Source: Escherichia coli (GTDB taxonomy: Bacteria > Pseudomonadota > Gammaproteobacteria > Enterobacterales > Enterobacteriaceae). From it: a stretch of 64,000 bases of DNA. Positions 782 to 41,062 of this stretch are shown in pieces. The translations under genes and the position numbers were made by a program. The DNA lies in assembly GCF_044324875.1 (NCBI RefSeq), contig NZ_CP172185.1. One strand, 5' to 3'. The notes beneath the pieces were generated by a model. It saw nothing but the letters and a program-made list of their open reading frames with translations. It ran no database searches and was not told where the DNA came from. Numbering within the stretch: the stretch's first letter is position 1; each line of letters opens with the position of its first letter.

Positions 782-1495
782 TTATTTGTTTTGGAAATGT
801 TTGTTTTTTCCCGGTAGTGATTTGTCAAAAAAGGTGATTAATCGATCACTTAATGGCGTCAGCAACACCCAGGGCAAACCGATCAATATCACGGTCATCG
901 AACCGACAATGATGTCAGTAAACCAGTGTGCGCCAATCATTACTCTGGGAAACGCAAAAACCACAAAAATAATAAGGGCGATAAGGCCTGCAACTTTGCC
1001 GAAATAACGCCACATGAATGCCGAAAAAATAAGCAGCATCATACCGTGATCGCCGGGAAAGCTATCTCGTGAGGCATCTTTAGTGGGAACAGAGAGCAGT
1101 TCGCTGACGCGGTTAATATCGGTAAAAGTCAATGTTGGGCTGGCCCGTTTTACAGGAATTAATGCCTGACCCAGCTGGTTTAATACCACTGCAGTTAATA
1201 GCATGACCAGACCAATAATCACGATACGTCGTCTGCCTGGGGCGTTTTCTTTCAGCCAGAAACTCAGCATCAACATTCCCATCGCCAGCAGTGAAAAACC
1301 GTCGAAAGCGCGATTGTTGGTCAATGCAACCAGCCACAAAAAGGCCTTACTTTCGACCAGTTTCTGATTAAAGAAATAAAAAATATCCGCATCAATCGGC
1401 AACCAGAATCCATGATTAACGGGTATATACCAGGAAAGAAACAGCGCGAGGCCGACAATATTCAACAACACTATTTGCGGCAAATTTTTAATCAT
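782..1495 (-). CDS. lpxT: Lipid A 1-diphosphate synthase / undecaprenyl-PP phosphotransferase (PAP2 family)
   Basis: Track ORF 782-1531; start set at internal ATG (1493-1495) giving 237 aa MIKNLPQIVLL..., multi-TM PAP2-like. Confidence 0.85.
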   Translation of the reverse strand: MIKNLPQIVLLNIVGLALFLSWYIPVNHGFWLPIDADIFYFFNQKLVESKAFLWLVALTNNRAFDGFSLLAMGMLMLSFWLKENAPGRRRIVIIGLVMLLTAVVLNQLGQALIPVKRASPTLTFTDINRVSELLSVPTKDASRDSFPGDHGMMLLIFSAFMWRYFGKVAGLIALIIFVVFAFPRVMIGAHWFTDIIVGSMTVILIGLPWVLLTPLSDRLITFFDKSLPGKNKHFQNK

Positions 1496-1533
1496 ATTTT
1501 CTCTAATTATCTTACTGAAAAACGCAGGCAACC

Positions 1534-2520
1534 TTACGCGGTAGTCGCTAAACGAAGCTTCAACAGCGCGCTCTGCAAGGCATTCCAGTCAGCTTCGCTG
1601 CTGGAAATCAGCTCAATACGACTGTCCGGTGGCGCAACGTTTTGCGTTTCAATGTGCAGGTCATCGCCCTGACGGTTGATTCGCACCAGCCCTTCGGGAA
1701 TACGCATCACGCCTTTGACGCGTTCCACCGGTGCAAGTCGCGCCCATTCCAGAATGCCAATGGTGTCGAATACCGTATCAGCGTCGAATATCCAGCCACA
1801 GGCCTGATGCCCTTGTCCGCTGTTCAGACTGCGACGCCAGCGTTGATGCTCTGGCAGGCTTAACGCTGCTAACCCTTTTTTCACGACATGCTGATGAGAA
1901 TGCGCGGCGCTGGCGGGCAACTCGGCTAAATTGCGACGCGGCAAATCCAGAAGATGACCGTCAACTTTCCCATGCTCACTGTGAATTAATTGCCGATCGC
2001 CACCATTTTGCTGCCACCAGCGCTGTAGCGCTTGCTCACTTTCGGGCGTCGCACGGTCGGATTTATTGGCGACAATAATGTCTGCGGCAGCCAGCTGGTC
2101 ACGGAAGTTTTCATTGCTGGCGCTTTTTTCGTCCAGCAGCAGGCGTGGATCGAGAATGCACAACGTGGCGCGTAGATCTATCCACGGTTCATAGACTGGT
2201 GCGGTTAAGAGATCTAGGATCTGTTTCGGATGCCCCAGTCCGGTCGGCTCTATCAACAAGCGGTCTGGTTTTCCCTGACGCAGTAAGGTATTCAATCCTA
2301 CCTGCATGGGTAAACCATTAACGCAGCACATGCAGCCGCCGGGGATCTCTTTCAACAATGCGCCGCTATCGGCGAGCAAAGCACCATCAATTCCGACTTC
2401 CCCAAATTCATTAACCAGTACCGCCCATTTTTCGTTGGGATCTTTATGGGCTAACAGATGAAGAATCGACGTGGTTTTCCCGCTGCCGAGAAAACCGGTG
2501 ATGAGGTTGGTCCTGGTCAC
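1534..2520 (-). CDS. yeiR: COG0523-family zinc-binding GTPase
   Basis: 328 aa, GTG start, P-loop GFLGSGKTT near N-terminus, CxCC motif. Confidence 0.88.
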   Translation of the reverse strand: MTRTNLITGFLGSGKTTSILHLLAHKDPNEKWAVLVNEFGEVGIDGALLADSGALLKEIPGGCMCCVNGLPMQVGLNTLLRQGKPDRLLIEPTGLGHPKQILDLLTAPVYEPWIDLRATLCILDPRLLLDEKSASNENFRDQLAAADIIVANKSDRATPESEQALQRWWQQNGGDRQLIHSEHGKVDGHLLDLPRRNLAELPASAAHSHQHVVKKGLAALSLPEHQRWRRSLNSGQGHQACGWIFDADTVFDTIGILEWARLAPVERVKGVMRIPEGLVRINRQGDDLHIETQNVAPPDSRIELISSSEADWNALQSALLKLRLATTA

Positions 2521-2637
2521 AACGGCTCCGCAATACTCTTAAAAGTTAACTGAGCGTTAATCCTGGCTAAAAACGGCAGAAAAGAGAAGGGGAGAGCGGA
2601 CGAAGGCGAGCTTCATCCGCTTTAACCGCAGAAATCG

Positions 2638-4104
2638 TTAAATTTTGAGGGTGTTTAATAGCGCCTGATGCGCGCCGAATTGTGCGATTTGTTGCCAGGC
2701 TTGTTCGATGGTCTGCACAAAATGCGGGTTATCTGGCAGATCATCACCGAAAACTTCACGCAGGGAAAGCAGGGCGGTGACGCGTTGTTCACTGCTGCTG
2801 CCCGCAACAAGTTCGCGAATTTTATCGCTAAGCGGATCGCGAACATCAATGGCATTTCCGGCATCATCAACGCCGCTGACGTAACGCATCCAGCCTGCAA
2901 CGCCTAATGCCAGCATCGACCAGTCCGTTTCGCGCCCCAGATGTATGCGAATACCTGCCAGCATGCGTTGCGGTAATTTCTGGCTACCATCCATTGCGAT
3001 TTGCCAGGTCTTATGTTTCAGCGCCGGATTAGCAAAACGTGCAATTAACTTATCCGCATATTGTGTTAAATCGACATCTTTAATTCGCAGTGTTGGCGCT
3101 TGCTCATCCAGCATTAATGTTCTGGCGGCATGGCGAAATGCGCGATCCTGCATGCAATCACTGATATGGGCGAATCCTGAGAGGTAACCCAGATAAGCGA
3201 GAAAAGAGTGGCTGCCATTAAGCATACGCAGTTTCATCTCTTCCCATGGCAGGACATCATTCACCATTTGTACACCTGCGACTTCCCAGGCAGGACGCCC
3301 AGCGACGAAGTTATCTTCCACCACCCACTGGATAAACGGTTCGCAGCTAATCGCGCAGGGATCATTCACCCCCAGATGCTGGCTGATTTCCGCTAGTGAT
3401 TCGTCGGTTGCAGCCGGAACAATGCGGTCGACCATAGTTCCCGGAAAACTGACGTGTTCTTTTATCCACCCGGCGAGTTCTGGCGAACGTTTTTCTGCCA
3501 TTCCCAGCACCGCGTTTTTCACCACATGGCCATTGTCGGGAATATTGTCGCAGGAGAGCACGGTAAACGGTGTAAGGCCGCGCTCACGGCGGCGTTTCAG
3601 TGCTTCGACGAGAATTCCCGGTGCGGAGTGAGGTTCTTCAGGATTTTGAAGATCGTGAATAATCCGCGGATTGCTGGTGTCGAGTGCACCGGTGGCTGGG
3701 TCAATACAATAGCCTTTTTCGGTAATCGTCAGGGAAACAATTGCCACCTGTGGCTCGCAAAATTTCTCAATAATTGCCGCTAAGGAATCCAGTTTTGCAT
3801 TCAGGCATTCGTGAACGGCACCGACAATTATCGCCTGATTGCCGTCCGCACCTTTCTCCAGCACGGTATATAAATGGTTCTGTGCGCGGAGCTGGCTCAT
3901 CAGTTGATCGCCGCTGAACAAGCTGATCTCACAGATTCCCCAGTCGCCGCCCTGGGCATTCAGCACACGATCGGTCAGTAACGCCTGATGTGCGCGGTGA
4001 AAGGCTCCGAAGCCAAAATGAACGATACGTGATTGCAACTGCTGGCGATCGTAGCGTGGAGCGTGTACATGATGCGGGAGCGTAGCGGAGGCGATTGTAT
4101 TCAT
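2638..4104 (-). CDS. yeiQ: Mannitol dehydrogenase-family oxidoreductase
   Basis: Track ORF 491 aa; start moved to MNTIASA (488 aa); long-chain mannitol DH-like sequence. Confidence 0.8.
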   Translation of the reverse strand: MNTIASATLPHHVHAPRYDRQQLQSRIVHFGFGAFHRAHQALLTDRVLNAQGGDWGICEISLFSGDQLMSQLRAQNHLYTVLEKGADGNQAIIVGAVHECLNAKLDSLAAIIEKFCEPQVAIVSLTITEKGYCIDPATGALDTSNPRIIHDLQNPEEPHSAPGILVEALKRRRERGLTPFTVLSCDNIPDNGHVVKNAVLGMAEKRSPELAGWIKEHVSFPGTMVDRIVPAATDESLAEISQHLGVNDPCAISCEPFIQWVVEDNFVAGRPAWEVAGVQMVNDVLPWEEMKLRMLNGSHSFLAYLGYLSGFAHISDCMQDRAFRHAARTLMLDEQAPTLRIKDVDLTQYADKLIARFANPALKHKTWQIAMDGSQKLPQRMLAGIRIHLGRETDWSMLALGVAGWMRYVSGVDDAGNAIDVRDPLSDKIRELVAGSSSEQRVTALLSLREVFGDDLPDNPHFVQTIEQAWQQIAQFGAHQALLNTLKI

Positions 4105-38785: not shown

Positions 38786-39912
<1,127 letters not shown>

Positions 39913-40018
39913 TTAATTCGTAAAACGTGCTACCGATCACATTAAGAAATCAGCGCTTATTTTTTCGCTCCCGGGCATTAAGCAATGAGCAGCGAACTCA
40001 GGCATACATCAAGCATAG

Positions 40019-40102
40019 AGAGGGATTGCAGTTTGCAGCAATCCCTCTTTGCAGACCTTTAATCCGCTGACCATAGGCGCTAACATAGCGCCTCATTTTT
40101 TT
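40019..40102 (+). promoter_or_regulatory. Two stem-loops in the dusC leader, the second terminator-like
   Basis: agagggattgc-agtttgca-gcaatccctct (11-bp stem) and aggcgct-aacat-agcgcct followed by cattttttt, ending 12 nt before the dusC ATG. Confidence 0.4.
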
Positions 40103-40114
40103 GCGGGTGATGAT

Positions 40115-41062
40115 ATGCGTGTGTTACTGGCACCGATGGAGGGTGTACTCGACTCTCTGGTGCGTGAATTGCTGACCGAAGTTAACGACTACGATCTGTG
40201 CATCACCGAGTTTGTCCGCGTGGTGGATCAACTGCTGCCAATAAAAGTCTTTCATCGCATTTGCCCTGAGCTACAAAATGCCAGCCGGACACCTTCCGGT
40301 ACGCTGGTGCGCGTGCAGTTGTTAGGTCAGTTCCCACAATGGCTGGCAGAGAATGCCGCCCGTGCGGTCGAGTTAGGTTCCTGGGGCGTGGATCTCAATT
40401 GCGGCTGCCCGTCGAAAACGGTTAACGGTAGCGGCGGTGGGGCGACGTTACTCAAAGATCCCGAACTCATCTACCAGGGTGCAAAAGCGATGCGTGAAGC
40501 TGTACCGGCGCATTTGCCCGTCAGCGTGAAAGTGCGTCTGGGATGGGACAGCGGTGAGAAGAAATTTGAAATCGCCGATGCGGTTCAACAGGCTGGTGCT
40601 ACAGAGCTGGTGGTGCATGGGCGGACGAAAGAGCAGGGTTACCGCGCGGAGCATATTGACTGGCAGGCGATTGGCGAGATTCGCCAGCGGCTGAATATTC
40701 CGGTGATTGCCAACGGTGAAATCTGGGACTGGCAGAGTGCGCAACAATGCATGACGATCAGCGGATGCGACGCAGTGATGATTGGTCGCGGGGCGCTCAA
40801 TATTCCCAACCTGAGCCGGGTGGTAAAATATAACGAACCGCGAATGCCGTGGCCGGAGGTAGTTGCTTTGCTGCAAAAATATACCCGTCTGGAAAAGCAG
40901 GGCGATACCGGGTTATATCACGTTGCGCGGATTAAACAGTGGTTGAGTTATTTGCGTAAAGAATACGATGAAGCAACGGAATTATTTCAGCATGTTCGGG
41001 TGTTGAATAATTCCCCTGATATTACAAGGGCTATTCAGGCAATTGATATCGAGAAACTCTAA
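40115..41062 (+). CDS. dusC: tRNA-dihydrouridine synthase C
   Basis: Start at [13 protein letters not shown] (315 aa). Confidence 0.88.

Follow-up and report, generated by a model that had tools for sequence, protein, structure and literature searches.

Two hairpins between yohJ and dusC

The window, i.e., the whole 64,000-nucleotide stretch of DNA analysed here, is part of an E. coli chromosome and contains, in this order, cdd, yohK, yohJ, an intergenic region, and dusC. Two hairpins lie on the dusC side of the intergenic region (Table 1). In hairpin 1, G·U and A-U pairs lengthen the perfect 11-bp stem to 14 bp. Hairpin 2 reads AGGCGCTA-ACA-TAGCGCCT and is followed by CA and then by a T7 run (40096-40102), which ends 12 nt before the dusC ATG.

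Table 1. Features of the yohJ-dusC region, in window coordinates
Feature	Position	Strand	Description or basis
yohJ	39478-39876	-	Annotation of an E. coli record
yohJ-dusC intergenic region	39877-40114		238 nt; genes divergent
Segment specific to island-less Escherichia	39952-40056		Occupies the site of the ~6.5-kb mhb island; partial megablast matches, junctions, alignment
Putative weak -10 CATACA of the 40015 5' end	40003-40008	+	Predicted from its position relative to the start site; 3/6 matches to TATAAT, lacks the T at -7
5' end of Kim 2012	40015	+	A40015, placed by the flanking 51-mer; 1 nt before the base of hairpin 1
Hairpin 1	40016-40051	+	11-bp Watson-Crick core 40019-40029/40038-40048, 8-nt loop, extendable to 14 bp
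Putative -35 element TTTAAT	40058-40063	+	Conserved cTTT, Reg-Seq "-35", promoter calls at orthologous sites
Hairpin 2	40075-40093	+	8-bp stem 40075-82/40086-93, loop ACA
Putative -10 element TAACAT	40081-40086	+	Spans the upper end of the 5' arm plus the loop in hairpin 2
Putative GC-rich discriminator AGCGCCTC (3' arm of hairpin 2)	40087-40094	+	C45, G46, T49, and C50 invariant
A plus T7 run	40095-40102	+	Putative start-site region of the promoter and terminator U-tract; annotated TSS 40101 inside
Shine-Dalgarno-like GGGTGA (40105-40110) and dusC ATG (40115)	40105-40117	+	Sequence, annotation
dusC	40115-41062	+	ORF list and annotation of an E. coli record

We compared the folding energy of positions 40010-40118 with that of shuffled sequences. 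The native sequence folded at -44 kcal/mol, against -26.3 ± 3.3 kcal/mol for the shuffles (z = -5.3), and none of 200 shuffles equaled it; a second comparison with shuffles of the same region gave z = -6.1. A terminator scan called 40075-40093 on the + strand (8 pairs, 5 of them GC, loop of 3), and hairpin 2 has the form of an intrinsic terminator, with a GC-rich stem, a short loop, and a U-tract within 0 to 2 nt. Both hairpins are present and exceed chance. An earlier, sequence-only reading of this DNA had described a perfect 11-bp stem followed by a GC stem and a T-tract ending 12 nt before the dusC ATG, and this anatomy is borne out by the sequence, the fold, and the scan. An Rfam scan of 39700-40300 at E ≤ 10 returned only sub-threshold chance matches.

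Putative promoter elements of dusC and published start sites

Hairpin 2 coincides with a series of promoter-like elements: TTTAAT, a 17-bp spacer, TAACAT, AGCGCCTC, an A, and the T7 run. The spacer is within the 16 to 18 bp of sigma-70 promoters, and the hexamers match the consensus at 3/6 and 4/6 positions. These E. coli hexamers are weak, and a promoter scan of the window called no promoter. At the orthologous position of the -35 element, other genera have TTGCCA or TTGTCT. The scan called TTGCCA-16-TAACAT exactly over the hairpin in Buttiauxella and TTGTCT-18-TATCAT in Serratia, where there is no terminator.

In order to see which positions are conserved, we aligned 63 dusC upstream regions. 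The invariant positions were T1, A2, and T6 of the -10 hexamer (T-12, A-11, and T-7), the CG and the TC of the GC-rich octamer, the TTT of the T-run, and one T in a cTTT block located 16 to 18 bp 5' of the -10 hexamer. The hexamer itself occurred as TAACAT, TACCAT, TACTAT, TATGAT, or TATCAT. The 5' arm of hairpin 2 was far less conserved, reading ACACAGT, ACAACGC, AAGACGT, AGCGGCT, or TCACCCG in various genera. The 3' arm did not change to match this variable 5' arm and was conserved even where the 5' arm was not. Overall, 83% of the stem cells of the alignment were paired, with individual pairs broken in 0 to 23 of 55 distinct sequences, and changes on both sides of a pair were found in 4 cells only. 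Accordingly, the stem showed no covariation, its score of 0.075 falling among those of controls slid by +1 to +3 columns (0.057 to 0.079). Together, the conserved columns are those predicted for a sigma-70 promoter. Conservation across species, which the earlier reading had named as a check on a regulatory leader, thus tracks promoter positions and not base pairs in the 63 to 80 Enterobacterales loci compared.

We also searched for the motif TAnnAT-N6-9-T≥5 in a cross-species set of 80 species representatives with a DusC orthologue. Of the 80 loci, 68 had the motif at most 150 nt from dusC, whereas the background expectation is 0.0027 occurrences per 150 nt. Its distance from the ATG is 62 to 94 nt in Yersinia and Pectobacterium, and Serratia, Kluyvera, and RIT691 have kept it with little or no stem, so the T-run travels with the promoter and not with the Shine-Dalgarno sequence or the stem. 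The TTT core is invariant, species without a stem included, and some E. coli strains carry a natural TTATTTT variant of the run.

Published mutagenesis data cover the same region. Reg-Seq (Ireland et al. 2020) mutagenized positions -115 to +45 around the dusC transcription start site (TSS) 2230395, which was taken from EcoCyc/Raghavan 2011 and was described by Reg-Seq as the only site of the area. We mapped K-12 coordinates onto the window via the ends of yohJ and dusC and checked the result with the center of a CRP site (2230563, window 39933). TSS 2230395 corresponds to position 40101, within the T-run and downstream of both hairpins. Mutations that lowered expression defined a "-35" at -48 to -42 (40053-40059) and a "-10" starting at -30/-26 and ending at -18 (40071/75-40083), this end being given as -18/-16 (40083/40085). 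Both signals were reported for ∼10 growth conditions, nearly all of those used. A repressor-like stretch with no named regulator, likewise seen in almost every condition, extended from -35 to -20 (40066-40081), or from -43 to -16 after automatic merging (40058-40085), and overlapped the 5' arm of hairpin 2. Over hairpin 1 (-82 to -52), Reg-Seq gave no signal.

For a start at 40101, the Reg-Seq elements are 10 to 12 bp too far upstream. Their positions fit a true start near 40093-40095, in a register 3 to 6 nt upstream of the hexamers that we assigned. Likewise, the annotated TSS is 15 nt downstream of TAACAT, whereas a start would be expected 6 to 9 nt from the -10 element, at 40093-40095. Since 40101 is too far from TAACAT, either the TSS or the hexamer assignment is imprecise. 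The T-run may blur the mapping of the start.

Another data set places the 5' end upstream of the hairpins. For cells growing in M9 glucose, the TEX-enriched 5'-RACE-seq of Kim 2012 (PMC3415461) gave a single dusC TSS (NC_000913.2 position 2228507, 21 reads) with a 5' UTR of 100 nt, and the corresponding table has no dusC start at 40093-40103. The two published dusC start sites, 40015 and 40101, are 86 nt apart. The sequence-only reading had made its case depend on transcription not starting downstream of both hairpins: EcoCyc/Raghavan 2011 (40101) places the start there, and the Reg-Seq elements (40053-40083) lie inside the supposed leader, but Kim 2012 (40015) has the start upstream. It is therefore possible that dusC has a transcript whose 100-nt leader contains both hairpins. 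Its promoter is poor by sequence, with CATACA and either TTAAGC or TTACGC, and the scan called no promoter-like site at 40003-40008. Alternatively, the 40015 end, located directly at a highly stable stem, may have arisen by processing and be resistant to TEX. The Reg-Seq fragment begins at 39986 and cuts into the -35 of the upstream promoter, so Reg-Seq is silent on this promoter.

Other sources were consulted for 5' ends. The accessible part of a Cappable-seq supplement had no entry at four coordinate prefixes, which cover the downstream start site only, and the portion of the literature text that was searchable gave no TSS for K. pneumoniae KPN_02581. The dusC promoter of Shimada 2014 (TCAACA-18-CATCAT, 39880-39909) was set aside, as it is a sequence prediction in a SELEX peak and has no mapped 5' end. 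We also considered whether an alternative sigma factor serves the upstream start; by eye, matches resembling sigma-E and sigma-54 sites were seen, and their spacings do not fit. In Shimada 2017, dusC is mentioned for a peak that lies downstream of it.

The mhb operon upstream of dusC in other genomes

Of 5426 complete E. coli genomes, 4917 contain the full intergenic region, and ∼500 others match its first 75 nt only. In these partly matching genomes, an island of ∼6.5 kb is located between yohJ and dusC and contains genes for a LysR regulator (mhbR), mhbT, gtdA, an FAH-family hydrolase, maiA, and the 3-hydroxybenzoate 6-monooxygenase (mhbM). This mhb (3-hydroxybenzoate/gentisate) operon points at dusC, i.e., the two are co-directional. 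mhbM is present in 613 of the 5426 E. coli genomes (∼11%), including O157:H7. In the island-bearing strain CEC01302, whose mhbM is 100% identical to that of O157:H7, the operon is followed by GAGGCGCTAACATAGCGCCTCATTTTTTTGCGGGTGATGATATG, which was scanned as a 9-bp terminator.

Among the 80 species representatives, 20 have the mhb operon directly upstream of dusC, ending 60 to 200 nt before it. Island carriers include Citrobacter, the Klebsiella oxytoca group, Raoultella, Pseudocitrobacter, Salmonella diarizonae, and E. coli E69. The identities of the mhb proteins to those of E. coli are similar to the identity of DusC itself, so the mhb-dusC arrangement seems to be ancient and was probably lost more than once.

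We then compared the stem of hairpin 2 according to its upstream neighbor. A perfect stem of 9 to 10 bp (-14 to -16.5 kcal/mol) was present in all 20 island loci and also in the five Buttiauxella loci, where a different co-directional gene lies 60 to 136 nt upstream. Where the neighbor is the divergent yohJ, stem energies ranged from -16 to 0 kcal/mol. The median was -16.4 kcal/mol for loci with a co-directional upstream gene and -8.8 kcal/mol for those whose upstream gene is divergent (Mann-Whitney p ∼0.0009, with no correction for phylogeny). In the genera Citrobacter, Klebsiella, Raoultella, and Escherichia, stems of island-less members were equal to or weaker than those of island bearers, with -6.7 to -9.3 kcal/mol in Citrobacter and -12.1 kcal/mol in both K. 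pneumoniae and the window. E. coli K-12 and the window have lost an outer stem pair (GAGG to TAGG), and the window has an 8-bp stem and a CA spacer, versus 9 to 10 bp abutting the U-run elsewhere. Enterobacter, Leclercia, Serratia, and Rahnella are exceptions, as they have a co-directional neighbor yet weak stems.

An intrinsic terminator is expected downstream of a co-directional gene. Since yohJ is divergent, hairpin 2 does not occupy such a position in the window; it does so in Buttiauxella, in the 20 loci with the mhb island, and wherever E. coli has mhbM (613 of 5426 genomes). The claim that no upstream plus-strand gene needs terminating is thus correct for this strain but not for the locus, given the mhb operon in those E. 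coli genomes and in many other genera. We infer that termination was selected for where the mhb operon abuts dusC and that this selection was relaxed after the operon was lost, which would make the terminator half of hairpin 2 a weakened relic in an island-less strain. Term-seq had been named by the earlier reading as a check on premature termination. The accessible part of the Term-seq tables of Adams 2021 (K-12; LB and M63) has no 3' end for dusC, and a yohJ-internal 3' end is listed there. This result gives no support to an attenuator and fits an island-less strain with little to terminate.

Proposed overlay of promoter and terminator, and alternative readings

From these comparisons, we consider that hairpin 2 probably unites two overlapping signals, a conserved core promoter of dusC and the intrinsic terminator of an upstream unit, in which case the feature is largely ordinary. 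The main and ancient role of hairpin 2 and its T-run would be that of the sigma-70 core promoter of dusC. Initiation would occur at or within CATTTTTTT (40094-40102), the exact start nucleotide being a prediction, and would yield a leader of ∼14 to 20 nt carrying the Shine-Dalgarno sequence. In the Enterobacteriaceae, the end of the spacer appears to have been kept complementary to the discriminator. Polymerase arriving from upstream would then transcribe a canonical intrinsic terminator, with a GC stem and a U-run, and would presumably stop there, insulating dusC. The upstream unit is the mhb operon in ∼11% of E. coli and in many other genera. It is missing from the window, where the slightly decayed terminator half would stop only weak upstream transcription, for example, from 40015.

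The proposed promoter resembles a known type. rrnB P1 is a sigma-70 promoter with a GC-rich discriminator and a start ∼8 to 9 nt from the -10 element. Similarly, dusC has TAACAT, the 8-nt GC-rich AGCGCCTC, and then a purine, and T-12, A-11, and T-7 are invariant across the order. Unlike rrnB P1, dusC has a weak -35 element and no evident UP element, and its annotated TSS is not at the expected A40095. The other half resembles the intrinsic terminators found at operon ends, with a GC-rich stem of 8 to 10 bp, a 3-nt loop, and U6-8, located 60 to 200 nt after the mhbM stop codon. It differs from them in that the window has no co-directional gene and in that the stem carries the -10 element and the discriminator of the next gene, an overlap of 28 bp. 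A terminator-like hairpin that precedes a start codon and has no upstream gene need not be an attenuator. Here, the pan-genome context pointed to a missing upstream operon, and cross-species conservation pointed to the promoter of the next gene enclosed in the hairpin. The terminator and the promoter would be overlaid within ∼28 bp, and the terminator half would decay once the upstream operon is lost.

The sequence-only reading had favored an attenuator or another regulatory leader. According to this alternative, dusC is transcribed from ∼40015, and hairpin 2 with its U7 acts as a conditional terminator in a 100-nt leader, with read-through controlled by a signal. The 5' end reported by Kim 2012, which defines the 100-nt 5' UTR, and the canonical terminator form of hairpin 2 agree with such a leader, but positions 40015-40117 fold as two independent hairpins in a centroid structure identical to the minimum free energy (MFE) structure, and this fold offers no competing antiterminator. 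The Reg-Seq repressor-like signal over the 5' arm (-43 to -16) would fit a stem disruption that raises read-through; however, the 3' arm was not flagged as repressor-like, and Reg-Seq points to an autonomous promoter (40053-40083) within the supposed leader. Except for an in-frame TTG at 40049, the transcript has no leader ORF. A leader peptide was rejected, as the sole small ORF nearby (ATG 39986, 25 codons) starts upstream of 40015 and is not conserved in sister clades. An outer helix of the MFE fold (40062-67/40103-08), which would occlude the Shine-Dalgarno sequence, was also rejected: it showed no covariation, and over 53 distinct sequences its duplex energy was the same for cognate (-6.78 kcal/mol) and noncognate (-6.63 kcal/mol) partners. 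The stem likewise lacks covariation, no Rfam family matches, hairpin 1 and the upstream start region are restricted to Escherichia, and the Term-seq tables of Adams 2021, as far as accessible, have no dusC 3' end. Like the trp and pyrBI leaders and the T-box attenuators, dusC has a terminator hairpin and a U-run before its start codon and one 5' end upstream; unlike them, it has no antiterminator, leader peptide, ligand domain, covariation, or detected premature 3' end. An attenuator or other regulatory leader is thus poorly supported, regulated attenuation of dusC is not supported, and we regard it as improbable.

The remaining alternatives read the same palindromes as DNA sites, as a separate RNA, or as neutral sequence. 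As a DNA operator, AGGCGCTA-N3-TAGCGCCT over the -10 element would be the site of a dimeric dusC repressor. The sequence is indeed a perfect inverted repeat, and Reg-Seq has a repressor site with no named regulator at -35 to -20 (automatically merged to -43 to -16, 40058-40085); yet this site is asymmetric, covering the spacer and the 5' arm and sparing the 3' arm. Such a signal may also arise where mutations strengthen a weak promoter, as C40078T would do by creating an extended -10 TGn. In addition, many genera conserve the 3' arm and not the 5' arm, which is unexpected for a symmetric operator. There is little chance that hairpin 2 is a repressor site. An Escherichia-specific small RNA of ∼88 nt (40015 to ∼40102), made independently of dusC, would have an Hfq-type architecture, in which a stem-loop follows the mapped 5' end (40015) and a single-stranded, AU-rich linker leads to a U7 terminator; the scan called hairpin 2 as a terminator. 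Against it, the accessible Adams 2021 tables show no dusC 3' end in LB or M63, no Rfam family and, in the literature searched, no small RNA was found at the locus, the upstream promoter is very weak by sequence, and sister clades lack a perfect hairpin 1 stem. We consider this small RNA very improbable. Finally, both hairpins could be chance palindromes, by-products of the deletion of the mhb island with no function beyond the embedded promoter. Hairpin 1 does lie in an indel-rich, lineage-specific segment, which differs in the cryptic clades by 35 extra bases and in the 3' arm, Reg-Seq saw no signal over it, and the stem of hairpin 2 is decaying in island-less lineages. But a perfect 11-bp stem has been kept in 4919 genomes at ≥95% identity, and hairpin 1 coincides with a mapped 5' end, a location which suggests that it contributes to RNA stability at least passively. 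We consider it unlikely that both hairpins are neutral.

Hairpin 1 deserves separate consideration. It is a single-copy, unannotated element found in 4919 of 5426 E. coli genomes at ≥95% identity. It occurs only in island-less Escherichia; sister clades have a less than perfect stem, and the 35 extra bases of the cryptic clades lie just upstream of it. The segment 39952-40056 does not resemble island DNA. When it was compared by short-word BLAST with the island and all 80 loci, no source appeared beyond island-less Escherichia, and a repeat family was discarded, since the segment is single copy in each genome. A YieP operator was also considered at hairpin 1; the published motif atTTGTaTGAcaAAT instead matches ∼39903-39917, next to the yohJ -10 element. 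Hairpin 1 appears to be a young, Escherichia-specific palindrome that possibly has no function, and we found no sign that it regulates dusC. Stem-loops at the 5' terminus stabilize mRNAs, as in the ompA 5' UTR. At the extreme 5' end of the minor transcript, hairpin 1 would stabilize the RNA, and it is at most such a 5'-terminal stabilizer. Like those of the ompA type, it lies at a mapped 5' end, beginning 1 nt after 40015; unlike them, it belongs to a minor transcript and is confined to Escherichia.

The invariance of the T-run at the start site across the order is not fully explained by either a promoter or a terminator. In promoters with UTP-sensitive reiterative transcription, a run of at least 3 T begins at +2 or +3, expression responds to the pyrimidine nucleotide pool, and non-templated U's are present in the transcripts. 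Promoters of this class carry related initial sequences, ATTTTTTG in codBA, GATTTTTTTTG in upp-uraA, and AATTTG in pyrBI (PMC7039003), and the accessible part of a 5'TNET-seq study reports that TTT tracts at start sites favor reiterative initiation (PMC12709180). The dusC promoter resembles these in having CATTTTTTTG right after the GC-rich discriminator, where the run may be initially transcribed, and the T-run goes with the promoter in all families examined. Unlike them, dusC has no evident alternative G start and is not a gene of pyrimidine metabolism, and some E. coli strains have TTATTTT. We know of no pyrimidine-dependent expression of dusC. By analogy with the codBA/upp class, the T-run might be an initially transcribed U-run at which slippage during initiation couples dusC to the UTP pool, and the hairpin would then combine a terminator, a promoter, and a nucleotide sensor; we think this rather unlikely. 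If true, expression of a tRNA dihydrouridine synthase would be tied to the UTP pool, and slippage would explain why the 5'-end data sets disagree on the dusC start.

Island polymorphism between yohJ and dusC

The gap between yohJ and dusC carries a 3-hydroxybenzoate/gentisate (mhb) island, consisting of mhbR and mhbT-gtdA-FAH-maiA-mhbM, in some E. coli strains and lacks it in others. mhbM was found in 613 of 5,426 E. coli genomes, with 26 plasmid-borne copies and lowest identities of 90 to 95%. The right-hand junction of the island in E. coli is of two different types, represented by strain E69 versus strain CEC01302 (locus L003), and the mhbM of the CEC01302 island type is identical to that of O157:H7. 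In Salmonella enterica subsp. arizonae (L037, positions 1417-4000), the island is partly degraded: it keeps the LysR gene and mhbT, the latter truncated, and the remainder has been replaced. The conserved dusC promoter motif (TAnnAT, 6 to 9 nt, then at least five Ts) is absent from this locus.

Features of the yohJ-dusC region. Positions are those of the window unless a locus is named.
Feature	Position	Strand	Remarks
mhb island	L003 7428-13727		
Island junctions	39949-39952 and 40056-40074		
GC-rich repeat, type ...CCCCTCGCCCCTTCGGGAGAGGGTTAGGGTGAGGG...	L003 7500-7570	-	Between mhbM and terminator/promoter, CEC01302 island type
Terminator-like hairpin ATGCCTGCCTGTATGCAGGCAT + TTTCATT	39790-39821	-	Inside yohJ; terminator scan
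yohJK control region	39897-39943		
yohJ -10, TATGAT	39909-39904	-	
YieP motif match ATTGTATGATGAA	~39903-39917		Published motif
CRP site AAACGTGCTACCGATCACATT	39923-39943		Footprint-seq

Sequence variation upstream of dusC

In the CEC01302 island type, the GC-rich repeat displaces the usual dusC -35 region and a new TTGTCT is found 17 bp from the -10 element TAACAT. Similar GC-rich elements occupy the same place upstream of dusC in two other genera (L027 and L078). The Escherichia albertii locus (L009) has an entirely different sequence at positions 1-141, 5' of the shared TTTGCGGGTGATGATATG, and a further terminator-like hairpin, CCTCCGGCTATGCCGGAGG with ATATTTATTT after it, is present in this stretch. 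That the contig breaks off 141 nt upstream points to a repeat or mobile element at this place.

Over the whole 238-nt intergenic region, the window strain differs from a K-12-like record at three positions, 39973, 39984, and 39991. All three lie 24 to 42 nt 5' of the 5' end at 40015, in what is presumably the -35 region of the upstream dusC start. Two E. coli strains, 4314 and BS15R-A (L084 and L085), carry a T-to-A change at the equivalent of 40098 that breaks the run of seven Ts preceding dusC (CATTATTTTG), accompanied by C-to-T at the site corresponding to 40052. Their interrupted T-run provides a ready-made natural control for any function of this element.

The dusC frame is open in the 5' direction as far as a TTG at 40049 (40049-40114). 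A start at this codon would possibly add a 22-codon N-terminal extension to dusC, running through hairpin 2 (40075-40093), and such an extension could be translated only from the long transcript that begins at 40015. The annotated E. coli records that we checked do not use it.

A hairpin within yohJ and the yohJK control region

The yohJ-internal hairpin is situated ~55 to 86 nt from the start of the ORF. Its position matches that of a Term-seq 3' end at K-12 position 2230706 (+), which was classed as "internal" to yohJ and appears in at least two listings in the tables of Adams 2021. The hairpin and 3' end may mark a site of premature termination or processing within yohJK. The transcription start site of yohJ was mapped to 39897 (Kim 2012), and the center of the CRP site is only ~36 bp from it, an unusual spacing.
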